From: a virus
Reading direction: 5' to 3' (one strand)
IMG/VR virus record: IMGVR_UViG_3300009702_000021
Span: 19,008-83,007 of that record
Length of the DNA: 64,000 nucleotides
The position numbers were made by a program, and so were the translations under genes. Of the stretch, positions 2,220 through 62,992 are shown piece after piece; position 1 is the first letter of the stretch, and each line of letters opens with the position of its first letter. Below the pieces are notes generated by a model. It did no database searches, had not been told where the DNA came from, and saw nothing but the letters and a program-made list of their open reading frames with translations.

Positions 2220-2255
2220 GACTTGCGGTACCGCAAATCTCCTGAGGAGTAACCC

Positions 2256-4136
2256 ATGCCCCTGCCATCTGGCGGCGCATCACATGAACCAGCACTCGAT
2301 GCAGTTTCGGTTCCGCCAGCGGCTGGGCCGGCACAGGAGGTTGCACTCGATGCAGTTTCGGTTCCGCCAGCGGCTGGGCCCTCGCGTTCACTGTCCCTAT
2401 CTACAAGTGCAGGTGAGTCATCCGGTGCATCACAGGAGATGTCCGGTGACTTCCTTCCCCGCTCGTGGATAGGACCGGTCCAGGAGAAGCAGGGTAGCTT
2501 CCTCCCGGTACTGGCACCTACCAAGTTTTCGGGTCCAGCGCGTTCAGCCAAGATGGTCGCATCGCTGTTTCTCCCGCCAGGCGCAGGGCCGGCCCAGGAG
2601 TCACAGCTTGAAGCTGTAACTGGCCTCGCGCCCTTCGTAAACGATGTCGTAGTAGAGCAGCGTGATAGGGCCAATACTTTCCTGACCGACGTCTCCTTCC
2701 TTGCGGGTCAGGTGACGGGAGACAAGCTCTCGTTGGCAGTGGAGTGGCAGATCGGCGGTACGTCTGGGACATGGAATCCTGCGACTCCACAGACATTTGA
2801 TCGCAAGCATGATCCAGAGGACCCGGGTGGGATCATCCGTCGCGTGGATCGCCGTGGACTCGAGGGATACTGGCGCTTTGAGCAGGACTTCCTAGACACA
2901 GCGGAGTTCGCTCGCCCACTGACCGAGATCGGCACTGTTCCGTTCACTACAGGAGGCGTACAGGGAGACGCAGTCCAGTTCGCCAACAACTCAGCAAACT
3001 ACCTACAGCGCAACGTCGATGACCCCACCATGGCGTTCGCAGCTGATGATGACTTCACGCTGCGTGTCTGGGTCCGCTGGACCAGCATCGCGGGTTCCCA
3101 GACCATCATTGAGAAGTTCACTCCACCCTCTGGGCCGGGCTGGAGCCTGACCAAGCTCGTCGACTCTCGGATCCAGTTCCACTACGGTGGCCCACCGGGG
3201 CTTCTGATTGAGACCTCTGGCTCGCTCGCAGTCGCAGATGCAACTTGGCACCAGATCGTCGTGCGCCGCCGCACCAAGGTCCTCGAGGTGTTCTACGACG
3301 GGGCCAAGGCTGCGCTGGTCGTAGACCCTCCCGAGCCGATCACCCCGCTCGCTCCATCCACGAACTTCCTCACCCTGGGTCGTCGGTCGAACGGTACCCA
3401 GCCCCTGGATGCTGACGTGGATGAGGTTGCGATCTGGACGCGATCCCTCAGCAATGCAGAGGTAGTTCAGGACTATGCGGAGGGAGCCGGGCGAGTCCTC
3501 CCGGGCACCGAGACAGTTCCTCTCGGTCTTCCATTCAACTTCGTCTGGGACACGATCCGTGACCTACCGGAAGGAGAATTTGAGGACGTCTTCGTCAGGG
3601 TCAGCGTCTCCAACAACCCAACTACGTCGGTGATCGTTGGTCCGCTATCCATAGCTACGGTTGCTCTGACTTCCGAGGACGCCCTAGCACGGAACCTCCA
3701 GCGGCGCGCACTCGCTGATCGGGTCGATCAAGACTTCCTCGGATGTGGGCTCCTGATCCCGTTCTGCCGTGGCTCAAGGGATTTTGAGAATGCTTGTGGG
3801 GTTGAATTGGTCCGCTCATCTGTACGACAGATCCTCGGGACTCGTGCCGCGGTTGGTCAGTTCCCAGGTGACCTCCCGTGGCGCCCAGATTTCGGCAATA
3901 AGATATGGATCCTGAGGCACCGGAACAATGACAGGATCCTGCGTGAGGAGGCGGTAGCGTTCGTCCAGGAGGCCCTCCGGTTCGAGCCGCGGGTAGAGGT
4001 CACGGAGGTCGTCGCCTCCGTTAACCCTGAGGACCCGAACCGGCTTGACGTCACGGTCCGATACCGGATCATCAAGACGAACACCCTGGACAACAGGGTA
4101 TTCCTACCCGAGTTCGAGGAAGTGGTAACGATCTGA
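2256..4136 (+). CDS. Baseplate wedge gp25/GPW-like protein fused to a LamG (concanavalin A-like) domain
   Basis: LamG motifs (GYWRFE, FTLRVWV, TWHQIVV, VDEVAIWTRSLS); C-terminal gp25 motif (SVRQILGT..GDLPWRPDFG...ALRFEPRVEV). Confidence 0.8.
   Translation: MPLPSGGASHEPALDAVSVPPAAGPAQEVALDAVSVPPAAGPSRSLSLSTSAGESSGASQEMSGDFLPRSWIGPVQEKQGSFLPVLAPTKFSGPARSAKMVASLFLPPGAGPAQESQLEAVTGLAPFVNDVVVEQRDRANTFLTDVSFLAGQVTGDKLSLAVEWQIGGTSGTWNPATPQTFDRKHDPEDPGGIIRRVDRRGLEGYWRFEQDFLDTAEFARPLTEIGTVPFTTGGVQGDAVQFANNSANYLQRNVDDPTMAFAADDDFTLRVWVRWTSIAGSQTIIEKFTPPSGPGWSLTKLVDSRIQFHYGGPPGLLIETSGSLAVADATWHQIVVRRRTKVLEVFYDGAKAALVVDPPEPITPLAPSTNFLTLGRRSNGTQPLDADVDEVAIWTRSLSNAEVVQDYAEGAGRVLPGTETVPLGLPFNFVWDTIRDLPEGEFEDVFVRVSVSNNPTTSVIVGPLSIATVALTSEDALARNLQRRALADRVDQDFLGCGLLIPFCRGSRDFENACGVELVRSSVRQILGTRAAVGQFPGDLPWRPDFGNKIWILRHRNNDRILREEAVAFVQEALRFEPRVEVTEVVASVNPEDPNRLDVTVRYRIIKTNTLDNRVFLPEFEEVVTI
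2292..2380 (+). repeat. 38-bp direct repeat (period 51) in the N-terminus of the gp25 fusion
   Basis: gcactcgatgcagtttcggttccgccagcggctgggcc at 2292-2329 and 2343-2380 (ALDAVSVPPAAGP twice). Confidence 0.9.
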
Positions 4137-4336
4137 TGTCCAGCCAAGCAACGCCGCGAACTTCTAACTTCCTCGCCTGGCTCACGACTGAGCCGGATCA
4201 CCACGAGGTCCGGTCGGCGCCGGGGACCTACTGCCGAGACCATTCTCTGGGTGAAGTGCTCTACTGTGGAAAGTGCAAGAAGGCGTGGAGCCCGTGCTGT
4301 AGCGAGTCGCGCCCGTGTCCGCAGGAGGAACGCTAG
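4136..4336 (+). CDS. Small Cys-rich hypothetical protein
   Basis: Start overlaps the upstream stop; CxxH and CxxC motifs; fills the gap exactly between gp25 and baseplate J. Confidence 0.45.
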   Translation: MSSQATPRTSNFLAWLTTEPDHHEVRSAPGTYCRDHSLGEVLYCGKCKKAWSPCCSESRPCPQEER

Positions 4337-5878: not shown

Positions 5879-6069
5879 TGAGTGAAGCTGAGAAGATCGC
5901 CAGAGCATTCCATGAGGCCTACGAGCGGCTTGCTCCTGCATACAGCTACAAGACCCGAAAGGCCAGTGCCGTAGACTGGCTTGATGTACCGGAGAACAAC
6001 AGGGCCCTCATGGTGGCTACCGTTCAGGACCTCATCGACCGTGGTGATGTTGCGGTACCGCAAACATGA
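5878..6069 (+). CDS. Small phage protein, RyR-repeat-like
   Basis: IARAFHEAY...W.DVPE.NR pattern; start overlaps the upstream stop. Confidence 0.5.
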   Translation: MSEAEKIARAFHEAYERLAPAYSYKTRKASAVDWLDVPENNRALMVATVQDLIDRGDVAVPQT

Positions 6070-8641: not shown

Positions 8642-8706
8642 GATCGCAGAGTGGGGCCTGAGTTTGCGGTACCGCAAACCGTTAGAGCACAGCAAAGGAG
8701 CACCTG

Positions 8707-10085: not shown

Positions 10086-10894
10086 TGCGAGTCGTCACCA
10101 TCGCTCTGATCCTGGGCGTCCTGGTCCAGGGCTGCTGCAACCCCGATGTCAAGATGAACCTCAGCTACGGACCTATGTCGGAGAACACGTTCGATGTCTA
10201 CTCACCAGGCGAGTTCTGTCCTGGTCACGGCAAGTCGAACCGGCCGGCGATTATCGCAATCCATGGCGGGGCCTGGCGTAGCGGAGACAAGAGCTGGGGT
10301 GAGCGGGTCGCGGACCGGTTCACTCCGAACGGCTACGTGGTGTTCAGCATCAACTACCGGCTCGCGCCGGGATCACGCTGGCCCGCCCAGATCAACGACT
10401 GCGTGGCAGCCCTGCGCTACTTTCGCGGTACCGCAAACCTCTGGGGCATCGACCCGGACCGAATCGCCGCATTCGGGGTATCCGCCGGAGGCCACCTAGC
10501 CGCCATGCTGGCGCTCCGTGGGCCAGACCGGGTGAATGTAGCAGTGACTGCTGATGGGGAGGGAGACCTGGCGGTATTCGGGAGAGCCCCAATCATGGCC
10601 GACGAGACGTCGATCCTGGAGGACGTACTGGGGCCCCAGCCATTCACCCAGGCGGACCTCGTGTCACTGAGCCCAGTCCGCTACGTGCGGCCCGACGTGG
10701 CCCTCATGGTCATCCACTCAACAGGTGACCAGAACGTCTACTACGACCAGGGAGTACGCCTCCACGACGCCCTCCTGGAAGCCGGAGCAACGACGGCGTT
10801 CGAGACCGTTAACGACGACTGCCACGGAAGGTGTTGGCGAGAGCCGAAGCCACTCCGGGCGATCAAGCGATTCCTAGCTGACAACCTGAATTAG
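10085..10894 (+). CDS. Alpha/beta hydrolase (HSL-type esterase), predicted lipoprotein
   Basis: HGGAW oxyanion motif, GVSAG nucleophile elbow, catalytic D and H; N-terminal hydrophobic stretch ending LVQGC. Confidence 0.85.
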   Translation: MRVVTIALILGVLVQGCCNPDVKMNLSYGPMSENTFDVYSPGEFCPGHGKSNRPAIIAIHGGAWRSGDKSWGERVADRFTPNGYVVFSINYRLAPGSRWPAQINDCVAALRYFRGTANLWGIDPDRIAAFGVSAGGHLAAMLALRGPDRVNVAVTADGEGDLAVFGRAPIMADETSILEDVLGPQPFTQADLVSLSPVRYVRPDVALMVIHSTGDQNVYYDQGVRLHDALLEAGATTAFETVNDDCHGRCWREPKPLRAIKRFLADNLN

Positions 10895-12199: not shown

Positions 12200-12808
12200 A
12201 TGGCACTGACGTTGGAGCACGCTGACTTCGACTCGCCAGTTGAGGGCGGACGGGCTGGCCTACTGGCATGGTGGGTCAAGGACGAGGAGCGCAAGCAGCC
12301 ATTCCTCTGCATCCGCTGGGCCGACCTCCTGGTGATACGCCCTAGGGTCTCCTGGCCCCGTGACCTAGACAGGAAGGCTATCGATGGCTGGGGACGGGAC
12401 AGCCAACACCTCGCCTACGTGCCATCGATGGGGATGTGGACGATACAGACCATTGTTCCGGTTCCGGCGCTCGGAGACCTCATGAGTTTGCGGCGCCGCA
12501 AGTACCAGCGAGCCAAGCTAGGGCGCCGGGTCTTCAGGTGGTCGAAGCGACTCAGGTTCCGTGAGCTGGACCTCTGCAACCCTGGGCTGGGCTGTAGCCT
12601 CTGGATCCCCAAGAGGTCCCTGAGGCGTCTCGAGGCAGCCCTGGAGGGCGCGGTAGGGCCCCTGAAGGGAGACCTCGACGCCAGGATAGTCCAGCCGCCC
12701 TGGGACGAAGGCACGGACCTCCTGGTTGTCTGGAAGGGAGGAGATGTCAGGGCCTCGGCGTCAATTGTCCCGACCGGAGTCCTCGAGCGCAGCATGGCGG
12801 ACAGGTGA
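12200..12808 (+). CDS. Hypothetical protein
   Basis: First ORF after an AT-richer intergenic region; coupled to the SNF2 gene. Confidence 0.5.
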   Translation: MALTLEHADFDSPVEGGRAGLLAWWVKDEERKQPFLCIRWADLLVIRPRVSWPRDLDRKAIDGWGRDSQHLAYVPSMGMWTIQTIVPVPALGDLMSLRRRKYQRAKLGRRVFRWSKRLRFRELDLCNPGLGCSLWIPKRSLRRLEAALEGAVGPLKGDLDARIVQPPWDEGTDLLVVWKGGDVRASASIVPTGVLERSMADR

Positions 12809-15543
12809 TCAAGGTCACGGTCTCGCCTGCCGGCACGGTCATCTTGGAGCCTACTTCCCAGGCCGACAAGAAGACCGTAAAGGACCTGCTATACGTCGTT
12901 CGCCGGAAAGGTAAATGGGTCACGTTCTGGACCTACCTCGTAGACCTCCGTCGTGACGTACCGGCGGGACTGCTCCAGTGGCACCCAGCGGCAACAGCCA
13001 GGATCCGAGCCTTGCTCCGTCAGGTCCGGGATCTAATCCGGGGAGACGATGAGAGGATTGCCGGGCAATTCAAGCCAGACCGGAGGCCCTACGACTTCCA
13101 GATGCAGGCGATCCACGCTGGCCTGAAGGCCAAGCAGATACTTATCGCTGACGATACGGGCCTCGGGAAATTATCCCCAGTCGACACCCCCGTCCTGACT
13201 CCTCTGGGCTGGCGGGAGATCGGGTCAATCCGCAAGGGAGACAGGGTCATTGGATCGGACGGGAAGCCTACAGAGGTGACGGGAGTGTTCCCACAGGGGG
13301 TCAAGCCAAGTTACCGGGTAACGTTCTCTGACGGGTCCAGCGCAGAGGCCGGACCAGAGCACCTCTGGGCGGTTGATTACTGGAGGGGAGGTCGTACCAA
13401 GTCTCGCATCGTTATAACTACTGATGATCTACGACTGCGTCCAATCAAGGATGGACTCGACCTCTCCAAGACCAGGCTCATGGTCCCCATGCTCTCTGGT
13501 CCGGTCGAGTTCGATAAGGGCCATCCCTTGCCTATCCCTCCATATGCAATGGGTGCGTTGATCGCTAATGGGGGGCTGACTTGTGGATCGGCTGTGCTTA
13601 CCTACGGGACCAAAGACTGGGACGAGATTAGGAACCTGATCTATGAGGGATACGGCTACGAACCTATGGGGAAGATTCAGAGGTCAGCCAACACAACACG
13701 AGCCAGCCTCCTCGGGGCGATAGTCGCCGTTCGCGATCTCAAACTGGATGTGAGAAGTCAGGAAAAGTACATTCCGACCTGCTACGCCACTGCATCTCCG
13801 GTTGACAGACTGAAACTCCTGCGCGGGCTCATGGATGCAGACGGGTCGATCACCAAGAAAAGGAATCGAGTCACCTACCATACGATCTCTTACGACCTAG
13901 CCCACGACGTGGCTGGGCTCGTGCAAGGACTTGGTGGGATTGGCAGTGTTCGACGCTATGACCGGACCCATGAGGGTAAGCCGGTCGAGTATCAGGTCAG
14001 GGTCAAGATGCCACATGGCATCAACCCGTTCTCACTTAGGCGAAAAGCAGACCGATATAACCCAGGACCCAAGGCTGGCCCCTGCCGAACGATCAGGACG
14101 GTCGAGTACGTTCGTGAGGCTGAGTCGGTCTGCATTTCTGTAGCTGCCAGTGACTCGCTCTACGTGGTCAAGGACCATATCTTGACTCACAACACCATCG
14201 AGTGCCTAGGAATCATGCTGACGGCCTTTCGGGAACGGTCGATCAAGCGCGCAGTCCTGGTCGTCCCAGCCGGGCTCAAGCACCAGTGGGCCGAGGAGAT
14301 CGAAGAGTTCGCGCTCGAGGCACCGGACCCGGTGATGATCGCCGTCTCGGGAAAGAACCCACGGCGCCGGAAGCAGCTATACAAGAAGCCATGGCGGGTC
14401 CTGATCATCAACCCAGAGCTAGTAAGGATCGATGAGGACAGCCTCAGGGAAGTGGCGAATGGTGTAGGCTTCGTAGCCCTCGACGAGGCATCCTGTATCC
14501 GCAACGAGGACTCGCAGATCGCTAGGGTCATGAAGCGCCTCTGGGCCTCGGCGATCTACAAGGTGGCCCTGACGGCTACTCCTGTCGAGAACCGGCTCGC
14601 GGACCTCTGGTCGATCATCCGCTGGGTAAGCCCGAAGGCGTTCCTGAGCCGGACCTACTTCGACCGCCACTACATCGTCTGGAGGAAGCTGAGGTTCAAG
14701 GTCAAGAAGCGTACGGGACGCACGGTCACGATTACCAAGGAGGAGCCCTTGCGGTACCGCAACCTCCGGGAGGTAGAGTCAAAGATCAGGCACTGCTACA
14801 TCAGGCGCCGCGTCAGCGAAGTCGGGAAGGAGCTACCCGAGCTTGTTGTCCAGTGGGACCAGCTGCTACTCCCGAAGCGTCAGCGCGCGATCTACGACGC
14901 CGTCAAGGACAAGCTCGAGAAGAAGATCAAGGGCCTACGCGGTGTCGCCCTCCACGCGCCACTCCAGGCCCTAAGGCAGGCGTGTAACAGCACCGCCCTA
15001 GTCGAGAAGGATCGCGGGCAGAAACACGCCTCAGTCAAGATCGATCGGCTCAGGGAGCTGTTGGAGACCGAGTTCACTGGCGAACAGGTGATCGTGTTCA
15101 CCGACTACGAGCGGTTCGGCCGGATCCTCAAGCACGAGCTGAGGGCCTACCGACCCGTGACCTACACCGGGAAGATGAACCGTCGGGACCGCCAGCAGGC
15201 GATCGATGCATTCAGGCTCGGTGATCGTAGGATCCTGATCGGGACCAAGGCACTCGAGCGGGGTCATAACCTCCAGAATGCCGCGATCGTGGTGAACATC
15301 GACCTCCCGTTCAACCCGGCCTCGGTCAAGCAGCGCCTCGGCCGAGTACGCCGCCTCGGCTCCAAGCACCAGACGGTCCGGCTCTGGAACATGGTAGTCA
15401 ACGACACCGTCGAGGAGCGACTGATCATGCGCTCGCTCTACGCGAAGCGGAAGCTGTTCGAAGGGATCTTCGAGTCGGACGAGCTGACCGACGCCGACCC
15501 CCTGGAGAGGATGGTCGGAGGTAAGCTGTGGGACCTCTTGTAG
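12805..15543 (+). CDS. SNF2-family helicase/ATPase containing an intein
   Basis: DDTGLGK|T Walker A, LDEA Walker B, LTATPVEN, motif VI QRLGRVRR. Confidence 0.9.
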   Translation: MIKVTVSPAGTVILEPTSQADKKTVKDLLYVVRRKGKWVTFWTYLVDLRRDVPAGLLQWHPAATARIRALLRQVRDLIRGDDERIAGQFKPDRRPYDFQMQAIHAGLKAKQILIADDTGLGKLSPVDTPVLTPLGWREIGSIRKGDRVIGSDGKPTEVTGVFPQGVKPSYRVTFSDGSSAEAGPEHLWAVDYWRGGRTKSRIVITTDDLRLRPIKDGLDLSKTRLMVPMLSGPVEFDKGHPLPIPPYAMGALIANGGLTCGSAVLTYGTKDWDEIRNLIYEGYGYEPMGKIQRSANTTRASLLGAIVAVRDLKLDVRSQEKYIPTCYATASPVDRLKLLRGLMDADGSITKKRNRVTYHTISYDLAHDVAGLVQGLGGIGSVRRYDRTHEGKPVEYQVRVKMPHGINPFSLRRKADRYNPGPKAGPCRTIRTVEYVREAESVCISVAASDSLYVVKDHILTHNTIECLGIMLTAFRERSIKRAVLVVPAGLKHQWAEEIEEFALEAPDPVMIAVSGKNPRRRKQLYKKPWRVLIINPELVRIDEDSLREVANGVGFVALDEASCIRNEDSQIARVMKRLWASAIYKVALTATPVENRLADLWSIIRWVSPKAFLSRTYFDRHYIVWRKLRFKVKKRTGRTVTITKEEPLRYRNLREVESKIRHCYIRRRVSEVGKELPELVVQWDQLLLPKRQRAIYDAVKDKLEKKIKGLRGVALHAPLQALRQACNSTALVEKDRGQKHASVKIDRLRELLETEFTGEQVIVFTDYERFGRILKHELRAYRPVTYTGKMNRRDRQQAIDAFRLGDRRILIGTKALERGHNLQNAAIVVNIDLPFNPASVKQRLGRVRRLGSKHQTVRLWNMVVNDTVEERLIMRSLYAKRKLFEGIFESDELTDADPLERMVGGKLWDLL
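13171..14193 (+). mobile_element. Class 3-type intein with in-frame LAGLIDADG endonuclease, in the SNF2 Walker A
   Basis: Begins with Leu; EHLW, VCISV, THN followed by T; GALIANGG and LRGLMDADGS motifs. Confidence 0.9.
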
Positions 15544-15996: not shown

Positions 15997-18900
15997 ATGG
16001 GAAAGAAACGCACTTGGTTCCCACACTTCCACGTCCATGACGAGCACTCGATCAAGGACGGCTGCTCGACCGTCGAGACCTACGCCGACCTGGTAGTTGA
16101 GTCAGGCGGAGACTGCCTAGCGATCACGAATCACGGGCAGGCAGCCGGGTTCGCGCGCCAGTACTTCGCCTGCCGTGACCGAAAGATCAAGCCCGTCTTC
16201 GGCATGGAGGCCTACGTCAACGAGTGGAGGACTCGCCCGATCAAGAGGCTCCAGGAGGAGCTGAAGAAGGCCGAGAAGGCTGCCAAGAAGTCGCCAGCCA
16301 GGCTCTCACAGATCAAGGCCAAGCAGGAGTCCCTCAAGCGGTTCATTGCTGAGCGGTTCCGGCCAAGCCCACATGCGATCATCCTCGCTAAGAACCGGGT
16401 CGGCTACCAGAACCTCGTTCGCATGAGCACGGACAGCTACCAGCACGGCTTCTACTATGTGCCGCGGACCGACACCAAGTTCCTCTCCGAGCACCGCGAG
16501 GGGCTGATCTACAGCACAGCCTGCATCGGTGGCTACATCCCCAGGATGGCCCGGGTAGACTTCGCCGCTGCGTGCGAGGAGGCTCGTCGGCTCAAGGCGA
16601 TCTTCGAGGACGGCGGAGGTGGCTTCTACGTCGAGCTGATGATCACCGAGTACGAAGCACAGCGTGAGACCAACGAGGTCATGATCCGGCTCGCCACCGA
16701 GATCGGCGCCAAGTGCATCCTGACCTGCGACGTCCACTACGCGAAGCCCGACGACGGGCAGGCGCAGAACGTCCTCCTGCTGATGCGGGACAAGAAGACG
16801 ATAGCCGACCGGGAGGCCGGCGAGGGAGTCTGGCAGTTCGAGGCTAAGGACCTCTGGTGGAGGACGGTCCAGGACGTGGTCCAGTGCTGGAGGGAGAACC
16901 ACTCGGACTACATGGACCGGAGCTGTTTCCAGGCTGCCCTCAAGAACACCCTTGCCCTGGCAGACGAGATCGAGGACGTCGAGTTCGATACGAGCCTCAA
17001 GCTACCTGGGGTCTTCAAGGAGCCAGATCACGACCTCAAGGAGCTGGTCAAGTCGGGCTTGCGGTACCGCAAGGAGCACGGGCAGCTAGCGCCGGGAGTC
17101 AAGCTCTCGGAGTACACCGATCGGATCAAGCGTGAACTATCGGTCATCAGCCCCAAGGGGTTCAGCGAGTACTTCCTGATCCTGCACGACGTCTGCCGGG
17201 CAGCCCGGGAGATGGGAGCCCGCATGGGCCCGGGCCGCGGTAGTGCCGGCGGATCCCTGACGGCCTACCTCTGTCGGATAACCGAGATTGATCCGCTCAG
17301 GTTCGGACTCCTGTTCGAGCGGTTCCTCGATGCCGGCCGCGATGACCCACCGGACATTGACCTCGATTTCTCCCCGGAACACCGAGACGGCATCAAGGCC
17401 TATGTCGAGAAGGCCTACCCGGCAACTGCAACGATCGGGTCCAACGCTACATTCAAGCCGCGCGCCACGCTCCAGGACGTCGGCCGGGTCTTCGGGATCG
17501 ACTACCGGGAGATGCAGCAGATAACCAAGCCCCTGGGTACCGAAGCTGATGACATGACGTGGGATGAAATCTTCGAGGCCTGGCCGGCCGTTGAGAGGTT
17601 TGCTGACGACCACCCGGAGGCGTGGAGCGTCGTCCGGGTCCTCCGGGGGCTCATCAGCCACCGCGGCAAGAATGCTGCCGGGATGCTCATCGCTCCGGCC
17701 TCAGCCCTCAACGACGTCCCGATGATCATGGAGACGGACAGCAAGGGCAACAAGATGACCGTGACAGCATTTGCGGACAGCCAGGGAGACGGAGTCGAGC
17801 ACAAGGGGCGGGAGCTGACTCGACTCGGCTACCTAAAGGCCGACCTGCTCGGTGTCCGAAACCTGAACATCGCGCCGCAAGCAGTCGAGATCGTAGCGCG
17901 GGATACTGGGCAGGAGATCGACCTAGAGTCACTCTCCCTCGACGACGAGGAGACGCTCCAGACTGCGGCAACGGGAGACGTCCCAGGGGCCTTCCAGCTC
18001 GACACCAACACGACGCGACCGATCCTCCGTCACGTCGGGGTAGATAGCTTCGCTGACCTAGTCATGATTACTGCCCTCTGCCGACCAGGTCCCCTCAAGA
18101 ATCAGATTCATCGTGAGTTCGCCAAACTCAAGCGCAGCGATGCATGGGAGGACGATGTACTGCCAGAACTAAGGGAGCTGCTCCGGGACAGCCGCGGACT
18201 CATGGTCCTCCAGGAGGACGTCATGTGGGTCGTGCAGGTAGTCAGCGGCATGTCGATGCAGGAGGCCAACATGCTCCGAAAGATCATGTCGAAGAAGCAA
18301 CCTGAGGCGATGAAGCAGTGGAAGGAGAGGTTCGTTGAGGGAGGCAAGGAGGTAGGGCTCGCCACGGAAGAGGAGCTGGTCGAGCTGTGGGACAAGATCA
18401 AGACCTTTGCCGGCTACGGGTTCAATAAATGTGTATGTTATAATCAGCCCATCACCGTGAGGCGGACTTGCGGTACCGCAAAGGAGACTGATCGTGGGCA
18501 AGAGTACACCAACGAAGTGCGCGTGTGGGGCGGTGTTCCCGAAGAAGAAGTTGTGGGTGGACCACAAGAGGACGTGCAGTCCACACAAGGAGATAGTCAA
18601 ACAGGCCCGGCTGTCCAACCTCGCCAAGGCCAATGCACCGGATGCGAGGGAGAGGGCGCGAAAGACTTTCCTGATGAGGGATTACGAGGTAACCGAGGCC
18701 CAGAGAGATGCTCGAAGGAAGAATGCCCGCAAGCACCTCACGCCGTGGGCGCAGAGCGAGGATGGCAGGAGGGTGTCTTCCGAGACAGCCAAGAAAACGT
18801 CAGCGAGGAAGGATGTCAAGCAGGCGAGGGCGAAGCGCATGAAAGAGTGGGTGCGAAACAATCCAGGAGTGATCGCTCGGACAGGTCAGCGTGCAGCGGC

Positions 18901-21543: not shown

Positions 21544-21869
21544 GCAAGCCGATGTTTCAGAAAAGGGATCTCGACCTCATCCGAGCCGCGACCTGGGGCT
21601 GCTGGGACGCGGTGAAGACCAAAGACCACCTCGGGGACGCGGCTAGGAAGCGAGGTCTCGTAGCCAGGACCGCGACCGGTGATGCCCACGAGACAGCCTT
21701 CAAGTGGGCCCGGCAGGAGCAGAGGGCCCACGATCTGCTTGCGGTACCGCAACCCATCAACGGGACCCTGCGGGATTACATCGCCTGCACCTGCTCCTAC
21801 GACGAGAGTGAGGAGATGACGCGCCATGCTCCGCTATGCTCGATCACCAAGGCGGGGATCAACTGGTGA
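21540..21869 (+). CDS. Hypothetical protein
   Basis: TTG start after GGAGGAGG; overlaps the dnaB start. Confidence 0.45.
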   Translation: MSKPMFQKRDLDLIRAATWGCWDAVKTKDHLGDAARKRGLVARTATGDAHETAFKWARQEQRAHDLLAVPQPINGTLRDYIACTCSYDESEEMTRHAPLCSITKAGINW

Positions 21870-24948: not shown

Positions 24949-25032
24949 CCGACTAGCGGTACCGCAAAAAGTTTTGCGACGGAACGACGGACTACCACGT
25001 TCGTTAGGTCGGGCTCGAGCTAGCGACATCGA

Positions 25033-27119: not shown

Positions 27120-27159
27120 GCCTTGCGGTACCGCAAACCCCCCAACCCCTGAGGAGACG

Positions 27160-37661: not shown

Positions 37662-37695
37662 CCTTGCGGTACCGCTAACAGCAAAGGAGCCAGAG

Positions 37696-38544: not shown

Positions 38545-38581
38545 CCTGACCTTGCGGTACCGCAAAGTGAAGGAGGTTGAA

Positions 38582-39232: not shown

Positions 39233-39234
39233 AT

Positions 39235-42672: not shown

Positions 42673-42709
42673 GTCGGGCTTGCGGTACCGCAAGCCCGAC
42701 CTAGCTCTC
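42664..42709. repeat. Perfect 46-bp palindrome centred on the 14-bp motif
   Basis: gagagctaggtcgggcttgcggt|accgcaagcccgacctagctctc. Confidence 0.9.
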
Positions 42710-44846: not shown

Positions 44847-47189
44847 ACGACGCTCGACTGGCTGAGGTGATGAAGAATCTCACGGGGCGCGCAGAGCTAC
44901 CAGGTGACCTGGTGCGGGTCGAGGACGGGGTGACACGGGACGAGCTTCGCCGGGCCCTAACGGACCTCGCGAATCTTCGCCGGGCCGACCGGAACCTCAG
45001 GATCATGGGCAAGGCAGTCAGGATCACAGTAGTCAGCGACCTCTGCACGGCCCTCCGGGAGAGCATCGCCCTGCAAGCACACTACGCCGCGCTGCTGAAC
45101 ATGCACGACGGCGGCGAGCGAGTGATCTTCCACACCGTCGATGAGTGGGAGACCCGGCTGAGGGAGATCGGCAAGCTATGAGCAACTGGCCCGGGGACAG
45201 CATTGACTGGCGTGGTATCCGGCCCGGAGACTTGGTCACCATGGTTCCGGCTTCGTCCTCTCCGACCGCCCAGCGAGGCTATGTCGTCACCAAGCCTGAC
45301 GGCCGGCTGGCTCTCGCATACTGGGACTCCAAGAGTGCCGTGATGGCCCAGCACATGCTCGACCTCTGGGCAGCGGCCGGCCAATGCACCCGGACGAAGA
45401 GGGAGGCCAGGAAGCTGGCCTCAGGACGGCAGCCGTGAGTGACGACATCGACGACCTGATGGACGAGATCAAGTCCCTGCCCCCCATCGAGCGCGCGTGC
45501 TGCCACAAGGCTAATCCGTGCTGGGACTGCCCACTTGCGGTACCGCAAACCGAGGCGTGAGGAGACGACATGAGCAGCAACATCGTGAGGCTCTGTGGGC
45601 GACGTGGGCTCATGGCCTGGTGTCATAGCTGTGTGGACTGGGAGCCGTTCACCACAGGACCCAGCGGGTGTAGTCACTGTAGGGTCTGCCGGAAGCCTAT
45701 GCCCGAGGTATACAGCTACGCGGATAGCGCTCCTCCGACTAGGACGTGGAAGCAACAGGCGGAGGTCCAGCCCGAGGCACCGGAGCGAGAGCCGACGTGG
45801 TGGCTCTACACCGAGTATGACGAGGCCGGAGTGGTCCGGTCAGCAGCGACGCCGGAGGATACCCTTAGGGACGCCCTAGCGGCCGGATGGTGCCCGACCG
45901 GAGAGGTCTTCGCCTACCGGCTGGTCGACATGGAGATCCTCGGATGCTACCGAGACGGGGAGCTGTTCCTGGATGGAGCAGTCGGTCCAGAGACGCCAAG
46001 TAAGGAGTGGTGTTGCACGGTCTGTGGGTCCCTGATCCCAGATGACATGGTCTCGGTAGCGAACGCAGACGGTAGTGGACGTCGTCACGTTATCGGGTCA
46101 CCGAACTGCCACCCCGGGAGCCCCCAGTGACCCTGACCGAACTCGAGGACCGCCTGACCGAGATCCGCAGGATCGCCTCGGCGTCAGGCCAGAAGCCGGG
46201 TAGTTACCTGGTCGAGATCCTTTCCAGCGACCCGGAGGGACTCATCAGCATCGCTTTGAAGAGCGTGAAGGTTGACCACAGGAGGAACACCATCACCCTA
46301 CGGACGTGGAGCTAACATGGTGCATGCCTCTTACGGTCTCGGTGGTGCTGGTCTTCGCAGAGTCGCCCGAGGTCGCCCGGAAGTGGATCGCCGCTCACCA
46401 GCGACCAGGGGTGATCTTCGCCTACGCCTACCGCTGGTCGTCGATCGTCGGCCGGAACCGCGAGAGCACATTCTGGGCCCGCGTCGGGGAGTGGTGGCGA
46501 ATCGAGTCCAACGAGGAAGCGATCTGGTGGGCCAAGGACAACGGTTACCAGGAGTGGTCCTGTGAGCTACTGGATCGTGACCTATGAGTACGACTCGTTA
46601 AACCCGCACGCCTCGAAGCGCTACGAGACCGAGGTCTGTGAGGGTGACCTAGGGGTGTGGTGGGCCGACAAGCTCGAGTGGTATCGGCGCTATGCCGATG
46701 AGGGCCGCGAGTCCGAGAGGATCGCCGAGGAAGATGGCCGCAAGGTTCCGCTCGCTGATCGACGCTACTCGGTCAAGCTCTCCATCATCAACGCGACACC
46801 GATCCTCAGGAGGGGCTACGAGCGCCTCAAGGAACTTACTGGATGAAGTGGAAGCTGATGCACCTGGTGACGTCGCATGACCTCGAGATGAACCGCCGCT
46901 GGTGGAGCGCCGACGGGGAGTGGGTACGCGCCTGGAGTGAGGGTCGGATCTACGACTCAAGGATGTCCGCCCGGATGGGGCGCAAGGTCGCGGTCAAGCG
47001 CAGCGGGCTCCAGGACACCAAGCGGGTCCGGCTCGTCCCGGTCTGTGACGACGGGGGCCGGTGCCACCACGACTGTATGCCCGAGGACTACGCCGAGGGG
47101 CAGGGGTGCTTCCGGCGCCAGCACGCCTCGCCACTCTCCGCGACGGGGCACGAGACCTGGGAAGCGTTCGACAACGCAGCGGAGACCGA

Positions 47190-48526: not shown

Positions 48527-48587
48527 CAAGCCGGGGAGGCCGGTACCTCCCCGGCTTGCGATACCGCAAAGCTTGCGATACCGCAAA
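48527..48587 (+). promoter_or_regulatory. Hairpin overlapping a tandem pair of variant palindromes
   Basis: caagccggggagg/cctccccggcttg stem, then (gcttgcgataccgcaaa)x2 running into an AGGAGG RBS. Confidence 0.7.
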
Positions 48588-51150: not shown

Positions 51151-51827
51151 GATTCATCACGGATCAGGATTTCAGGGAGTACCTCGTCGACGGCATGGCC
51201 CGGACCTACCGGGACTGCCAGGCCTGTCCCCTGTCCCGTCACAGGACCAACGTCGTGCTCGGTGACGGTCCGCTCGAGCCGCTCCTGGCGATCATCGGGG
51301 AGGCACCACGGGACGGGGCCGATGACTACGGCGTACCGTTCCATGAGTCTGATGAGCCGAGCCGACTACTCCGCCGGGCCCTGGAGAAGGTCGAGATCGA
51401 CGTTGAGCGGGACGCCTGGATGACCTACGTGGTGTCCTGCCAGCCACGCGATGACCGGAAGGCGCGGCCTGAAGAACGACGCGCCTGTACGGAGCGCCTA
51501 CACGCTGAGATGCGGATCGTGAAGCCCTACGTGATCCTCTGCCTAGGCAAGGCAGCGCTGCACCACGTCTGCCTCAACATCCACCGGTCTGACTCTCTCG
51601 GAAAGCACCGCGGCCTGGTCAAGAAGCAGCACTGGCCCTACGCGTCGTTCGGAGGTTGCGGTACCGCAAACCTCAAATCCGTCTTCGCCACCTACGACCC
51701 GGCCTACCTGATCAGGATGCAGGGCAGCGCAGATCAGCGAAGGATATCTCACCGGTTCGGACAGGACCTTCGCAACGTGAAGCGCGTCTTGGACAAGGTC
51801 GCCAAGAAGGTCAGAAAGACAGGATGA
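51147..51827 (+). CDS. Uracil-DNA glycosylase, family 4-like
   Basis: CxxCxL...V.G.G...IIGEAP...C.P...C...CLGK.A...TY.PAYL. Confidence 0.8.
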   Translation: MRFITDQDFREYLVDGMARTYRDCQACPLSRHRTNVVLGDGPLEPLLAIIGEAPRDGADDYGVPFHESDEPSRLLRRALEKVEIDVERDAWMTYVVSCQPRDDRKARPEERRACTERLHAEMRIVKPYVILCLGKAALHHVCLNIHRSDSLGKHRGLVKKQHWPYASFGGCGTANLKSVFATYDPAYLIRMQGSADQRRISHRFGQDLRNVKRVLDKVAKKVRKTG

Positions 51828-53879: not shown

Positions 53880-54569
53880 ATGAGCGATGACTACAAGCAA
53901 CAGGTCGAGCTGATCAAGAAGCAGTGCAAGGTGGCGGGTCGGAAGCGCAAGAGCAAGCCGAACGTCCTGGTCTTCCGATCCTCCGGGACCGGCAGGGTCG
54001 GAGACCTGGTGACATTCGGTCCGCCCTGCGCACACGACCTGCGCTGGTCCTGTCTGCTCCTCGGGGAGGCACCGAATCGTTGGCAGGGGGAGGATCCGAT
54101 CCAGCGCGGCCGGCACACGCTCTATCGCGAGGACCTGGCCGAGCTATGCGGGCTCACGATGCCAGCGTTCTACCGCTGTTTCGTCCGAGCGAATCTCCTG
54201 AGCCGCTGGCCCGGTCGCTCCGGCCGGGGCTCAGCCTTCCCGCCCGCAGAGGCTCGTAGACGAGCCGAGAGCGTCGCACAGCACCTCGGGTCCTTCCGCA
54301 GCGTGGTCCTGGTCGGGAGACGAGTGGCGCGAGCCTTTGGGCGCTACAAGCAGGACTGGTACGCCTGGTACGACGACGGACCCCGGGTAGCGGTCGTCCC
54401 GCACCCGAGCCGGGTCAACCGCTACTGGAACGACCCGGCCAACGTCCGCGCCGCCGAGGCGTTCTTCCGACTCCTGGCCGAGGGTATCCTCGAGCCGCTC
54501 CGGGCTGAGAGTTTGCGGCGCCGCAATTTGATCGCCGCGGGGCGTGACCCCGACAAGGAGACGCGGTGA
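53880..54569 (+). CDS. Second UDG-superfamily protein
   Basis: LLGEAP...NLL...VVLVGRRVA...VPHPS..NR.WN. Confidence 0.65.
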   Translation: MSDDYKQQVELIKKQCKVAGRKRKSKPNVLVFRSSGTGRVGDLVTFGPPCAHDLRWSCLLLGEAPNRWQGEDPIQRGRHTLYREDLAELCGLTMPAFYRCFVRANLLSRWPGRSGRGSAFPPAEARRRAESVAQHLGSFRSVVLVGRRVARAFGRYKQDWYAWYDDGPRVAVVPHPSRVNRYWNDPANVRAAEAFFRLLAEGILEPLRAESLRRRNLIAAGRDPDKETR

Positions 54570-56882: not shown

Positions 56883-56969
56883 GTTAGGAACCTACTAGAT
56901 ACTGCGCTCTCAGTTCAACCGTTTAATGGATTAGGCGGAAGATGCCTAGGATACGAGAGTCTCGGTCAG

Positions 56970-57515
56970 ATGCAGAAGAAGCGAGTGAAGAAGCGGGTGA
57001 AGTCGAAGAAGGTACGGAAGGCCCTCGGAGCCGGGTTGTCAGCAATTGCTGGTCTGGATGATGACCCGGATCCGCCTGAGACCCAGAAGGCCACGCCGAA
57101 GCGTCATGAGACTCAGAAGGCTACACCGAAGCGTCGCGTAAAGCGCCGGTCGAAGGCTCCTCCCAAGCCGTTCTTCGCTACCTGCGGAGTTTGCGGTACC
57201 GCAAACGTCGAGATCGCCTACACCGAGGCTGACGTCAACTGGGAGATCGCAGGACACCAGGACCACTACGAACGGCAGGTTGGCTCCTGCTGCTCCGGCT
57301 ACGTGATCGGTCGTGACCTACTCACTGCCGCCGTCCTCCGGGAGGTCTCGAGCCGCCTCAGGGGAGTCGACAGGACACATCACAAGCTTGAGAAGCTGCG
57401 CGAGGCTGTAGGTCCCGAGCTGGGTTTAACCCCCGGGGACCCCGGGGAGGCCCAGCTGATCCGATGGGCCGAGAAGGTCGGCGTTGAGTCGGAGTGGCTG
57501 GAAGCCTATACATGA
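56970..57515 (+). CDS. Hypothetical basic protein with a Zn ribbon
   Basis: Lys-rich N-terminus, duplicated ETQKATPKR, CGVC motif. Confidence 0.5.
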   Translation: MQKKRVKKRVKSKKVRKALGAGLSAIAGLDDDPDPPETQKATPKRHETQKATPKRRVKRRSKAPPKPFFATCGVCGTANVEIAYTEADVNWEIAGHQDHYERQVGSCCSGYVIGRDLLTAAVLREVSSRLRGVDRTHHKLEKLREAVGPELGLTPGDPGEAQLIRWAEKVGVESEWLEAYT

Positions 57516-58722: not shown

Positions 58723-60319
58723 TGGTGCGTGGTGACCTGGGGCTGGTCGAATGAATGAGGGGGTGCAGGATGTCTGCCAAGCGAGTACTACGGAAACGGG
58801 TAAGGATTCTCGAGCAGGAAGTGAAGTCGTTGAAGATCCTCGCGGTATCACAGGGGGCAGTGAACCTAGTCCTGTGCCAACTACTGGTCCAGCGCGGCGC
58901 GATCCGGCCCGAGGACGCCTCGCTCGTCTCCGCAGCCTACCGGGATCCAGGACCAGACCTCACGCCGGAACAGATCATGGAGTGGGCACGGACCCAGTTC
59001 TCCAGTGCCACGCGGCCCGGATGCGACGCCGAAAGGGAGGAGTGAGGGCCGTCACCCATGAGTGCCGGCAGGACGGGTGTCTGAAGCGCACCCGTGAGGG
59101 GAAGCCGTACTGCCCGGACCACGTCTACCTGAATCCGTACGTAGCCTCGTTGTTGGCTGACATGGAACGGATCGAGGTAGAGAAGCAGGCCCGGAAGGCA
59201 GTAGCAACTGGGCACGTTGCCCACGAGATCATGGTCGTCCTCTGGTCCAACAACGGGGTTGCGAGCGTCGAGTTGATAGCGCGGACAGCGGGGCTCGAGC
59301 GTGGCCTGGTAGTCAGGACGCTCCGGGCGATGGTGTCCGAGAAGCGAGTCATCCTCAAGCGGACTAACCGCGGGAGGACGATGGCGAAGTCGAAGGAACA
59401 GGACCCGATGAGGAGGCGACGTGGCTGAGACGAGGAGGCATTGATGGCTTGGATCGGTAGGACAGGTGACGTGCTGTATGCACTCGAGCTGGCTGGCGCT
59501 GAGAAGGACGAACAGGGACGCTTCCTGACCTCGGTCCAGGAGCCCGTTGGACCCGGTGACCCTCCGGCGTTCACCTACTCGGCGTTCATGGGCCGGGGAA
59601 GACGAGACAACGACATCTTGATCGGAGACAGCTTGCGGTACCGCAAGTCCGGTCACTGGCACCACGTCGTTGACCTGCTCAGCGGGACCGGGATGTCTGG
59701 AGTAAATGTTCTCTGATGGACTATCGGTGCGAGGCACTCACCAGGCTGGTGATCGATGCCGCAACTGGGTTCGAGTTCCACGGGGTGGACCGGGACGACT
59801 GCGGGTTCTGGGTCAGGGTCAGCCGAGATACCGACGAGTCCGAGGAGTGTCGCTGGGTGATCCACCGATTCCATGAGAGGCCCTGGTATCGGATCGCCGG
59901 TAGGGAATTCCCGTTCCAGAAACCGGCCGTGCTGTGTGAGCACAGCAGCCCCGAGATCAAGGGCCTGTTCTGGGCCCCGTGGCATCCTGAGGCGGCTCTG
60001 CCAGGTGATGACTCCTGGCTCCCGATCGGATACGAGAACCTCTACGAGGCCGTAGCCCACGCACTGCGGATCTGCCAAGGAGACGTGTTGGTGCCGGATC
60101 CCCCAGACTCGGAGGAGAACGAGTAGTGGTTGACGGCGAGGGCTGCTACCGATATTCCTGTACCGCTGAACGCGACCACGTCTGTCAGGTCTGCTCATGG
60201 TGGATCTGCATCAACGTGCACCACGTCGTCACCGATCACCGCCGATGTACCGTCCGGTGGACAGACGCCGTCCTGGGCCGAGGACCGGCCTGGCTCGTAG
60301 AAGCGGCTAGGGCCTCCCG

Positions 60320-61694: not shown

Positions 61695-61913
61695 CGTGCC
61701 GGAGGGTGGGGAGGGAGCAGGACCGAGCCACTCGCTACCTCCCCACCCCGAGGCGCCCCAGAGACAGATGAGTGATCCGAACGAGGGAATATGGTCGGCG
61801 ATCCTACTATCAATCACCCTCCTGTTCTTGATAGCTACCGTGGGAGGAGCAGCCCTGGCCTGGGGGGTCTACGTCTACGACCTCACCAATCACCTGCTCC
61901 GGTAGGAAATCGG

Positions 61914-62927
61914 ATGACCGCCGGAAACTGCCGTCACTGTGGGACCGCGCTCGAACAGGCGAAGTACAGGAAACCGAGGACGTTCTGCGACCTACACTGC
62001 TTCATCCTGTTCGCGAAGGCTAACCCAGAGACCAAGCTCTGTAGTTGGTGCGGGAACGAGTTTGAGGATCCGCGGCGGCTGAGTCAGAATCGGTTCTGTT
62101 CTTCCCATTGTGCCCGGGATGACTACGCGTTCAGAGCTGACCCGGACCGGTCCTGTCGCTGGTGCCCACGCGAGCCGGGTGAGAACCGGATGCTGTCCCG
62201 GACGCAGTGCAGGACGTGCCACGCGAAGCGCGAACACTACGGGACGTGCCGTCACGGACACTGCGGCAGGATCCTACGCCCCCGGGGATTCGGCCGGCAG
62301 GGTCCAGGTCTGTACTGCCCCCGTCATGAAGGCCCGGACCTCTGGCACAGGATCACCGATTCGGTCCGGGTCCTGCTGGTGGACCGTCAGTCCGGGCTAC
62401 TCAGGATCTGTTATCGACTCAATTCTGGGAAGACTTCAACCCCCGAGTGGGACGGTCGGATCGGGCGGGCAGCCCAAGATCGCAGCGTGATCATGCTAGT
62501 AGACCGGGATGCATTCGTATCGCGCGAGACCCGCTGGGCCCTGGCGATAAAGGGGATATCGGACCCACGTCACCGACTAGACCGATATCCGTGGTCGATC
62601 TTCACCGTTGACGAGGTAGGGGGCAGAAATGGCGATCAGATACGCCGTTCCATCCGGGACGCGATGACTGCCTGTATCGCCGCCGGGTCGCCAGTATCAG
62701 CGGTGGGGTTTGGGGACCAGTTCAAGGATGCGACTACCATGACTACGAATCGTCGCTGGGAGCGGTTCAAGCACAGGATCGCCGATCTAGGTATCGAACA
62801 CCGACGTCTAGAGACACAGCAGGATAATAGCGTGCCAATTGCATTCGACGAGACCCAGTGGGAGTCGTGGATTGCATTCACCGACCAGCGAGTTCTCCAG
62901 CGCCAGGATAAATCACTATGGATATAG
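61914..62927 (+). CDS. Multi-Zn-finger hypothetical protein
   Basis: Repeated CxxC..FC..C motifs. Confidence 0.5.
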   Translation: MTAGNCRHCGTALEQAKYRKPRTFCDLHCFILFAKANPETKLCSWCGNEFEDPRRLSQNRFCSSHCARDDYAFRADPDRSCRWCPREPGENRMLSRTQCRTCHAKREHYGTCRHGHCGRILRPRGFGRQGPGLYCPRHEGPDLWHRITDSVRVLLVDRQSGLLRICYRLNSGKTSTPEWDGRIGRAAQDRSVIMLVDRDAFVSRETRWALAIKGISDPRHRLDRYPWSIFTVDEVGGRNGDQIRRSIRDAMTACIAAGSPVSAVGFGDQFKDATTMTTNRRWERFKHRIADLGIEHRRLETQQDNSVPIAFDETQWESWIAFTDQRVLQRQDKSLWI

Positions 62928-62992
62928 GACCGGAGTTCGTCCCCAGACACCGACGCAAGCTTGCGGTACCGCAAGCCGAGGAGACACCGATT

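Follow-up and report, generated by a model that had tools for sequence, protein, structure and literature searches.

A 14-bp palindrome dispersed over the genome of a large uncultured myovirus: a probable binding site for a symmetric phage protein, with a ParB/KorB/Noc-fold candidate reader

The palindrome and the genome that carries it

The window examined in this study, a stretch of 64,000 nucleotides of viral DNA, comprises bases 19008-83007 of the 83,007-bp IMG/VR record IMGVR_UViG_3300009702_000021 (G000; CheckV completeness 45%) and is marked over almost its entire length by copies of the 14-bp palindrome TTGCGGTACCGCAA. A sequence-only reading of this window had counted 17 exact and 8 one-mismatch copies, and our motif scan reproduced these counts, giving 25 matches at no more than one mismatch, the first at 2223 and the last at 62961-62974. 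The same reading had listed a single symmetric variant; there are two copies of it, TTGCGGCGCCGCAA, at 12488 and 54513. The whole record contains 21 exact copies of TTGCGGTACCGCAA. A second IMG/VR contig (G001, 46,062 bp) contains 15 exact and 6 one-mismatch copies, and its first 123 nt are the reverse complement of the start of G000 at 100% identity, from which it follows that the two contigs are adjacent pieces of one genome. Joined in silico via this 123-nt overlap, they form a scaffold of 128,946 bp (scaffold J) with 36 exact and 17 one-mismatch sites (53 in total). At the outer ends of scaffold J direct repeats, 70% identical, are found near both termini.

The source genome is that of a large, uncultured, high-GC myovirus (GC ~62%), and the genes of the window are almost all on the + strand. 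Structural genes are those for baseplate gp25/W and baseplate J proteins in the window and for an HK97-type capsid protein, a portal and a T4-type large terminase in G001. The replication genes encode DnaE, DnaB, a DnaG zinc ribbon, SNF2 and DEAD helicases and RecA, several of them with inteins, and further DNA-related genes encode a sigma-70-type factor, HU, Mre11/SbcC-like proteins, UDG-family proteins and an N6/N4 methyltransferase. Among public sequencing runs, the sequence was found in one DNA run, from a subsurface metagenome that is possibly its source, and in no RNA run. Among GenBank phages no match was obtained by megablast of 12 kb or by tblastn of the open reading frame (ORF) 687-2219, and the closest cultured phages are distant by tblastn (at most 30% identity for DnaE and 40% for the capsid protein). 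Searches of the available DNA, which represents an incomplete genome, detected no tyrosine integrase and no serine recombinase, nor was an integrase or repressor-type lysogeny module found in it; the phage is apparently lytic.

The sites occur in the tail/baseplate, the replication and the accessory regions, in agreement with the earlier description of a motif spanning the structural, replication and accessory modules. In window coordinates, they are:

2223..2236, exact site, past the stop of ORF 687-2219 and ahead of the start at 2256 (baseplate gp25/LamG protein)
6050..6063, exact site, intergenic, after the baseplate J gene 4337-5878 and before 6179
8664..8677, exact site, 22 nt past the stop at 8641 and 29 nt ahead of the start at 8707
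10423..10436, one-mismatch site, within ORF 10034-10894
12488..12501, symmetric variant TTGCGGCGCCGCAA, within ORF 12200-12808
14749..14762, exact site, within the SNF2 helicase gene, codons L-R-Y-R
17059..17072, exact site, within the DnaE (pol III alpha) gene
18468..18481, exact site, in the intein region of DnaE, 12 nt ahead of the GTG that opens nested ORF 18494-19315
21739..21752, exact site, intergenic, ahead of the DnaB-intein gene (start 21836)
24954..24967, one-mismatch site, 5 nt past the stop at 24948 (DnaG zinc-ribbon protein)
27123..27136, exact site, 3 nt past the stop of the tandem winged helix-turn-helix (wHTH) gene 26610-27119 and 23 nt before 27160
30088..30101, one-mismatch site, close to the end of ORF 29511-30152
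30719..30732, exact site, within the DEAD-box helicase gene 30284-34384
31834..31847, exact site, within the intein (residues 463-840) of the DEAD-box helicase gene
34496..34509, one-mismatch site, in the intergenic stretch 34384-34598
37664..37677, one-mismatch site, 2 nt past the stop at 37661 and 18 nt ahead of 37696
38552..38565, exact site, 16 nt ahead of the HIRAN-domain gene (38582)
40702..40715, one-mismatch site, within the RecA intein
42664..42709, perfect palindrome of 46 bp centered on an exact site (42680-42693), 7 nt past the stop at 42672
45535..45548, exact site, 21 nt ahead of the start at 45570
48556..48586, two one-mismatch sites, both reading TTGCGATACCGCAA and 17 bp apart, past the HU gene 48238-48519 and ahead of the start at 48597
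51656..51669, exact site, within the UDG-family ORF 51078-51827
54513..54526, symmetric variant TTGCGGCGCCGCAA, within ORF 53847-54569
57191..57204, exact site, within ORF 56451-57515
59633..59646, exact site, within the small ORF 59444-59716
62961..62974, exact site, 18 nt ahead of the start at 62993

Chance had been expected to yield far less than one copy, and this holds: 100 dinucleotide-preserving shuffles of the window contained 0.01 matches on average (maximum 1), and an order-3 Markov model of the 129-kb scaffold gave an expectation of 0.0 for TTGCGGTACCGCAA, of which 36 were observed. For the 10-mer core GCGGTACCGC the same model predicted 0.37 copies in the scaffold and 52 were observed. 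The commonest other 12-mer in scaffold J has only 6 copies, and no k-mer rivals the palindrome. GGTACC forms part of the core of the palindrome, and of the 69 such hexamers in the scaffold 52 fall inside the motif. The observation of a palindrome lattice is, therefore, confirmed. Moderately repeated 12-mers, among them GGAGACACCGAT and TATGATGGAGGC, occur 5-6 times each across scaffold J, for example in the flank of window 62961, and may be ribosome-binding/start contexts or promoter elements.

Site anatomy, conservation and a sister lineage

The anatomy of the motif was examined for the 53 sites of scaffold J, oriented by local gene strand. The information is confined to the 14-mer and a weak symmetric flank (GRGY...RCY) of ~3 nt on each side, beyond which it drops to background; on the upstream side the preference is for a pyrimidine at -1, G at -2, a purine at -3 and G at -4, and on the downstream side for a purine at +1, C at +2 and a pyrimidine at +3. 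Conservation covers all 14 positions, those of the would-be hairpin loop included; mismatches occur mostly at the outer two positions of each arm, and the central TACC is invariant among sites with at most one mismatch. A palindromic extension is absent in 30 of the 53 sites, and covariation in a flanking stem is absent as well (-1/+1 Watson-Crick pairs in 23 of the 53 sites vs. 19.9 in shuffles, P 0.2). As a bare RNA hairpin, the site would pair into a 5-bp stem closed by a GUAC loop, which scarcely beats shuffles in ordinary contexts. Neither promoter-like hexamers nor a T-run were found around the 53 sites. Two familiar classes of element were considered and rejected, i.e., an intrinsic terminator (the nucleotide that follows is a purine, A or G, in 48 of the 53 cases and T in one, there is no T-run and the stem is 5 bp) and a dispersed repeat of the repetitive extragenic palindrome or miniature inverted-repeat transposable element type (there is no conserved unit beyond the core, and 25 of the 53 sites are inside genes).

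The 28 sites that do not lie wholly within genes correspond to a density of 1.61 per kb vs. 0.22 per kb inside genes (~7-fold, P 1e-11, as based on heuristic gene calls), and many sites are found 9-30 nt ahead of a start codon, beside the Shine-Dalgarno sequence. The 25 coding sites fall in all three frames and are not significantly denser in long than in short genes (0.33 vs. 0.19 per kb, P 0.15). Overall, there is approximately one site per 2.4 kb of scaffold. Spacing is more regular than at random: the coefficient of variation of the gaps between sites is 0.49 in G000 vs. 0.96 in simulations, a value as low being reached in 1 of 20,000 simulations, 0.62 in scaffold J and 0.70 in G001 alone (P 0.07). 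Outside the window, four copies in G001 form an array of 60-bp period. This 4-copy array occupies the 3' part of a 328-aa ORF that has an ArsR/DeoR-like helix-turn-helix (HTH), at the junction where blocks of + and - strand genes converge. Just past this array, at J ~15,950-16,150, an AT-richer patch lies amid DNA of 63-67% GC; possible roles for it are those of an origin-like unwinding element or of a terminator zone.

The palindrome is retained in relatives of the phage. In the relative G003 (68-72% nucleotide identity) the positions orthologous to G000 21230 (window 2223) and G000 18227 are occupied by identical sites, and the metagenome contigs L218 and L219 carry exact sites orthologous to the one-mismatch window sites 37664 and 34496, respectively, the flanks of the latter being ~50% identical; in all these pairs the flanks are much less conserved than the site. 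The symmetric variant TTGCGGCGCCGCAA is likewise present in L218 and in G004/L036. Sites are also gained and lost: L218 is without the RecA intein and without its site 40702, yet has an extra site within an insertion, and G003 has a site where G000 has a small additional gene. Elsewhere in IMG/VR, multiple copies of TTGCGGTACCGCAA were encountered only in contigs of the lineage of the window, with ~70 other contigs having one copy each, and the variant with a CG centre gave no more than chance-like single matches outside the lineage. A scan with the hybrid motif TTGCGATATCGCAA also yielded mostly single matches and a few contigs with 2-3 copies.

In cellular genomes, the exact 14-mer was found at 120 or more loci, with one copy each among the matches listed. 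Five whole cellular genomes of 3-10 Mb had one copy each, and single copies were present in 4 of 401 and 5 of 401 genomes from the phyla of a Nocardia and a Lysobacter, samples in which a reversed control pattern matched no fewer genomes. Hence, TTGCGGTACCGCAA is not enriched in the cellular genomes searched. The sequence-only reading had envisaged an equal abundance in host chromosomes, as for a generic palindrome; the cellular genomes searched give no sign of it. In the literature searched we found no mention of the 14-mer and no account of a phage system of this kind, combining ParB with dispersed palindromes.

A search with the wHTH family led to a contig of a sister lineage (G811, 31,204 bp) that is syntenic with J ~15-44 kb and contains neither TTGCGGTACCGCAA nor the 10-mer core GCGGTACCGC. 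In their place it has 6 exact and 2 one-mismatch copies of another palindrome, TTGGGATATCCCAA, which can be extended to GTTTGGGATATCCCAAAC. A second contig from the same sample (G812, 47,159 bp), syntenic with J ~49.9-99.3 kb, contains 5 exact, 1 one-mismatch and 1 two-mismatch copies of TTGGGATATCCCAA and again no TTGCGGTACCGCAA. Together the two contigs have 11 exact copies of TTGGGATATCCCAA; the expectation from base composition is 3-4e-5 copies. The two palindromes have TTG...TA...CAA in common and differ at positions 4/11 and 6/9, with the same change in both half-sites, and intermediate half-sites (e.g., TTGCGAT) occur as minor variants in both lineages. Two places are orthologous across the lineages, i.e., G812 11936 with J 52802 and G812 32537 with window 14749 in the SNF2 gene; the orthologous DnaE codons of G812 (window site 17059) contain no site. 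In the SNF2 gene, the codons CCC TTG CGG TAC CGC AAC of J compare with CCT TTG CGA TAT CGC AAA of G812, both encoding L-R-Y-R, and the synonymous changes hit exactly the two motif positions that are left free by coding, each towards the motif of its own lineage; in G812, CGA and TAT have a joint frequency of ~0.03. These synonymous differences, which match the motif of each lineage, provide direct evidence that lineage-specific selection acts on the DNA sequence itself.

A long perfect palindrome centered on the lineage's own motif occurs once in each lineage: the 46-bp palindrome at window 42664-42709, in which the site is extended by 16 nt on each side (dG -46.4 kcal/mol, z -10.4), and a 38-bp palindrome at G811 ~23676-23713. 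Since each of these is built around its own lineage's motif, they suggest a special site, e.g., a bidirectional terminator, a cruciform or an origin.

Some other features of the window deserve mention. Inteins, recognized by LAGLIDADG/Hint signatures, are unusually many (window 12805-15543, 15997-20637, 21836-23932, 30284-34384 and 39732-42332); the genes split by them are those for SNF2, DnaE, DnaB, the DEAD helicase, RecA, the G001 portal and the adjoining Mu-F-like protein of G001, and a palindrome site is present in three of the window inteins. At 39161-39318 ARAGORN called a tRNA-Ile with anticodon TAT (reading AUA) and, directly after it, a tRNA-like gene whose anticodon is given as four bases (aaat). 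SbcC/Rad50-like ATPase pieces, an Mre11-like phosphoesterase and the HU homologue are encoded at 43800-44846, 47061-48224, 48238-48519 and 48851-49681, and the HU gene is followed by the sole tandem site pair of the window. The N6/N4 DNA methyltransferase gene is located at 55741-56601.

Candidate readers and competing explanations

Only the 14-mer and its weak flank are conserved, hairpin covariation is lacking, sites are kept at orthologous positions, and the sister lineage shows both symmetric changes and synonymous tuning. On these grounds, TTGCGGTACCGCAA is very probably a double-stranded DNA site for a two-fold symmetric phage protein. Such a protein acting genome-wide is the reading best supported by the sequences, and the earlier proposal of a dimeric protein bound all along the genome is supported in part; the regularity of the lattice is not seen in the sister lineage. 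To the fuller statement, in which the ParB/KorB/Noc-fold protein encoded at 35737-37110 is the predicted reader, we attach even credence. Three candidate readers were considered:

35737..37110, + strand, candidate reader 1, 457 aa, ParB/KorB/Noc-type N-domain and HTH, acidic N-terminal extension with a small beta domain, separate C-terminal domain
G001, L089 10269-11255, - strand, candidate reader 2, winged-HTH protein of 312/328 aa, the 3' end of whose gene holds the 4-copy array; outside the window
26610..27119, + strand, candidate reader 3, 169 aa, two winged-HTH-like halves, Pfam HTH_20 (E 2.9e-5)

The 457-aa protein is assigned by PHROG as ParB-like (E 2.2e-14). Its top match in a phmmer search of the PDB is Noc (E 4.6e-4), with the xPR, GxRR and DNxxRE boxes and the HTH aligned (kPR/qPR, DGLRRLSIA/AGERRWRAV and DNEAREE/ENLQREE for the phage protein and Noc, respectively; the canonical boxes I, II and III are xPR, GERRxRA and ENxxRE). 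An AlphaFold2 model, based on a family alignment of 23 sequences, has a mean predicted local distance difference test score (pLDDT) of 79, and Foldseek of this model returned KorB 8qa9 as the top match (E 6.8e-9, TM-target 0.66), followed by Noc and structures of ParB with cytidine triphosphate (CTP), at E-values up to 1e-7 and with a probability of 1.00 over ~220 columns. Accordingly, the model predicts a ParB-type N-terminal nucleotide-binding fold. A central HTH is also present, being aligned to that of Noc and covered by a structural alignment of the DNA-binding domain that includes ParB-parS 6s6h and KorB-operator 1r71. In the alignment of the 23 members G202, R205 and N239 are invariant and R242 is nearly so. 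An HMMER scan of 1.84 billion representatives revealed ~22 full-length relatives and a word-index protein search only 3, and a search of IMG/VR with two family sequences found none. Relatives with 64% and 49% identity are encoded on two metagenome contigs, both of which contain the exact 14-mer, and the core of the recognition helix, SQxS[KR]MV, is identical in these relatives.

If this protein is the reader, dimers would, by analogy with ParB, KorB and Noc, nucleate at the ~50 dispersed sites and the 4-copy array and then close as nucleotide-dependent clamps and slide, with the array possibly serving as a high-capacity loading hub. Given sites that are evenly spaced at every ~2.4 kb, the sliding protein would cover the phage chromosome near-continuously. 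The output would more likely be genome-wide silencing or timing, organization, or marking of the phage DNA than partition as in plasmids; a KorB- or Noc-like output is favored over partition because no ParA was found and there is no sign of lysogeny. ParA, searched for as PF13614 (AAA_31), was not detected in G000, G001, G002, G003 or G005, although the genome is incomplete, while 14 of 14 control genomes were positive. This is the cognate Walker-type ATPase that a ParABS partition system would need. The sites with their statistics and conservation, the motif switch and the fold of the candidate are the observed part of this account; binding, clamp behavior and biological output are inferred.

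A number of observations weigh against this assignment. Pfam ParB_N does not match the 457-aa protein at E ≤ 0.01, the only Pfam match being a weak one to DUF7343, and a six-frame search with PF02195 gave no match in G000. Box II reads GLRRLSIA and thus lacks the Glu and the third Arg of the canonical GERRxRA; in some family members the first Arg is replaced by H, T or E. The co-occurrence of protein and motif is non-discriminating, because any gene of the lineage co-occurs with the motif. No cluster of sites adjoins the ParB-like gene, and two other HTH proteins, those of the array gene and of the tandem-wHTH gene, are closer in position to sites. In the sister lineage, G812 ends ~1.4 kb before the orthologue of the ParB-like gene and G811 ends inside the wHTH gene. 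The spacing of sites in G812 is irregular and their density lower, and even spacing is not universal in any case, with gaps of 18.6 kb in G812 and 9.4 kb in G005; in scaffold J the largest gap is 7.5 kb and a test of the maximum gap gave only P 0.05. Finally, the gene calls derive from a crude GC3-based heuristic (86.5% coding).

The palindromes may be protein sites and yet have another phage HTH protein as their reader, either the wHTH protein of the array gene or the tandem-wHTH protein acting as a pseudo-dimer, a possibility we regard as rather unlikely. The former protein, which is encoded in identical form on a 126,176-bp contig of another assembly, has the array in the coding 3' part of its own gene, where the units translate as LAVPQT. 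AVPQ, the in-frame reading of GCGGTACCGCAA, is present in 9 of 24 homologues, in 8 of which it is part of an otherwise unconserved C-terminal tail (here, 8 of the 9 that have it); 152 other proteins compared do not contain it. Its HTH matches are ArsR/DeoR-like, the AT-richer patch lies beyond the array, and G811 has a site of its own lineage ~130 nt past the stop of the homologue. If this protein were the reader, the array would be an origin-like or pac-like cluster inside the gene of its own binder. The origin of phage lambda lies inside gene O, and pac sites are known inside small-terminase genes. However, AVPQ is absent from 15 of the 24 homologues, Foldseek gave no significant match (best E 0.2), HTH matches in the PDB are weak, there is no PHROG or terminase-small-subunit signal, and an origin or pac function leaves the ~50 dispersed single copies unexplained.

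For the tandem-wHTH protein, a site lies 3 nt past the stop of its gene in the window and, with the motif of the other lineage, 117 nt past the stop of the homologue in G812. These homologues are 25% identical, compared with 50-75% for their neighbors, which fits a reader whose specificity changed along with the motif; the low identity may, however, simply reflect weak constraint, and the adjacent site is a single one. Neither of these two families has a precedent for dispersed sites over a whole genome, whereas KorB has one in the 12 sites described for RK2. The Noc family likewise has such a precedent.

Very unlikely, in our view, is that the palindrome acts as a nucleic-acid structure, either as an RNA hairpin (a processing site, translational operator or terminator element) or as a DNA cruciform. 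The sites are palindromic and the symmetric changes of the sister lineage also preserve pairing; the ~7-fold intergenic enrichment, the position of many sites shortly before start codons and the two long perfect palindromes would all suit such a function. Nevertheless, the isolated hairpin is weak and in 4 of 5 ordinary contexts no better than shuffles (z > -2.1), and the lack of flank covariation and of a T-run is difficult to reconcile with a structural role, as is the conservation of the would-be loop. Furthermore, almost half of the sites lie within genes, in any frame, and the one-mismatch variants are uncompensated.

We give still slightly less credence to the idea that the 14-mer is the target of a DNA-modifying or nicking enzyme, for which the methyltransferase encoded at 55741-56601, the hypermodification cluster discussed below, or one among the many HNH/LAGLIDADG nucleases would come into consideration. 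The phage does encode such enzymes, and the GGTACC hexamers of the scaffold are concentrated in the motif. Moreover, phage T-dioxygenases are described as acting post-replication with a sequence preference, one subclass requiring a ParB-like activator without a DNA-binding domain (PMC13229309). The preferences reported for these dioxygenases are trinucleotides (NTC, NTG), however, and not 14-mers (PMC13229309). No Tet_JBP domain or C5-methyltransferase was detected in the 129 kb, although the Tet_JBP search matched nothing anywhere, controls included. Enzymes of these classes also rarely need 14 specified bases, and modification targets are normally not over-represented a thousand-fold.

That the sites bind a host protein, with the phage titrating or recruiting a host regulator via copies of its operator, is the least likely of these explanations and has nothing specific in its favor: the change of motif between the sister lineages is easier to explain with a co-evolving, phage-encoded reader, and no cellular genome searched has more than one copy.

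Known systems and significance

The closest mechanistic models for a ParB/KorB/Noc-fold reader of TTGCGGTACCGCAA are, by analogy, KorB-OB and Noc-NBS. KorB is described as a ParB-family protein with an N-domain and an HTH that reads a short dispersed palindrome and forms a CTP-dependent sliding clamp capable of long-range silencing. The sequence-only reading had drawn the comparison with dispersed KorB operators, and it can now be tied to a candidate, the ParB/KorB/Noc-fold protein with HTH that is encoded in the window: in both cases a palindrome is dispersed over the replicon, and KorB 8qa9 is the top structural match of the 457-aa protein. The differences are substantial, however, with ~50 sites per 129 kb here compared with the 12 reported for RK2 (IncP-1), a plasmid of ~60 kb. 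Here the replicon is a large myovirus with its own replisome in which no IncC/ParA was found and no KorA-like partner was identified; the site is unrelated to the OB core as reported, TTTAGCGGCTAAA, and box II of the window protein is non-canonical. Noc is a ParB-family protein without ParA that reads a 14-bp palindrome scattered over the Bacillus chromosome and tethers the DNA to the membrane via an N-terminal amphipathic helix, thereby blocking division. It is the best match by sequence in the PDB and the second by fold, and no ParA partner was found here either, but the phage protein has an acidic N-terminal extension and a small beta domain, and the density of sites is far higher here.

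Centromeres of low-copy replicons provide a further comparison. The sopC locus of the F plasmid is an array of tandem repeats, each with a palindrome read by a ParB-family protein, and phage N15 has a handful of single centromere copies dispersed over its genome; both systems partition a low-copy plasmid prophage with the aid of ParA (SopA). Both forms exist here, as the 4-copy, 60-bp array and the dispersed copies, but no ParA and no sign of lysogeny were found.

Dispersed palindromes have been reported in phages before. The Cluster O mycobacteriophages (Corndog and relatives) have >30 copies of an invariant 17-bp inverted repeat, TGTTCGG-N3-CCGAACA, many of them intergenic and approximately one third coding, which in the account of PMC4351075 are not tied to promoters or start codons. 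Its authors predict that a dimeric protein binds these repeats, and describe the phages as not obviously temperate and as encoding proteins with ParB-like domains (PMC4351075). The repeats do differ from those studied here in sequence and in having a 3-bp spacer, and they belong to ~70-kb siphoviruses in which they are denser at one end of the genome (PMC4351075). This is the closest phage pattern, although the likeness is one of pattern only and not of mechanism. The stoperators of Cluster A phages, to which the Cluster O paper refers, are bound by the phage repressor, which silences transcription. Like the sites described here, they comprise dozens of dispersed, mostly intergenic sites of 13-14 bp. 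They are, however, asymmetric and oriented with transcription (PMC4351075), a contrast already drawn from the sequence alone and borne out by the perfect palindromes and symmetric flank preferences of TTGCGGTACCGCAA, and an integrase or repressor-type lysogeny module was not found here.

Outside the window, between the large terminase and portal genes of G001 (L088 ~14390-19944 and L089 49-1974, - strand), lies a cluster that encodes two ParB_N-only proteins (P0001 and P0002, with a GGHQRL box), two TET-associated glycosyltransferases (TAGT), a radical SAM/SPASM protein and an NAD-dependent sugar epimerase/dehydratase. The genes for P0001 and P0002, for which the ParB_N matches are weak and no HTH was seen, flank the two TAGT genes. 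It is likely a DNA base-hypermodification cluster. The cluster resembles the 5mYOX/ParB hypermodification neighborhoods reported in PMC13229309, although no dioxygenase was detected here. P0001 and P0002 share the layout given in PMC13229309 for 5mYOX-associated ParB activators (a ParB N-domain and a C-terminal domain but no DNA-binding domain, location next to glycosyltransferase and terminase genes); candidate reader 1 does not. A speculative extension, which we consider doubtful, is that an orphan ParB-family clamp without ParA coats the chromosome as a mark of "self" and licenses or guides ParB-dependent hypermodification, or shields the DNA from nucleases; reader and motif would then switch together between lineages (TTGCGGTACCGCAA vs. 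TTGGGATATCCCAA), so that each phage recognizes only its own DNA. If true, this logic could also explain the 17-bp repeats of the Cluster O mycobacteriophages.

Since dispersed palindromes are already known from phages such as those of Cluster O, what appears to be new here is that they occur in a large uncultured myovirus in combination with a candidate reader of the ParB family, an even spacing and a motif switch between lineages. The candidate reader can be named and folded and belongs, by prediction, to the ParB/KorB/Noc clamp family. The switch in specificity of the sister lineage would offer a natural system of swappable sites and proteins, and the spacing pattern suggests that sliding clamps could cover the whole genome. 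If the proposed pairing of palindrome and ParB/KorB/Noc-fold reader is correct, the site/reader pairs may be of use as orthogonal tools for labeling DNA, and the role of ParB-type CTP switches would extend from segregation and plasmid silencing to the organization or marking of the chromosome of a lytic phage.

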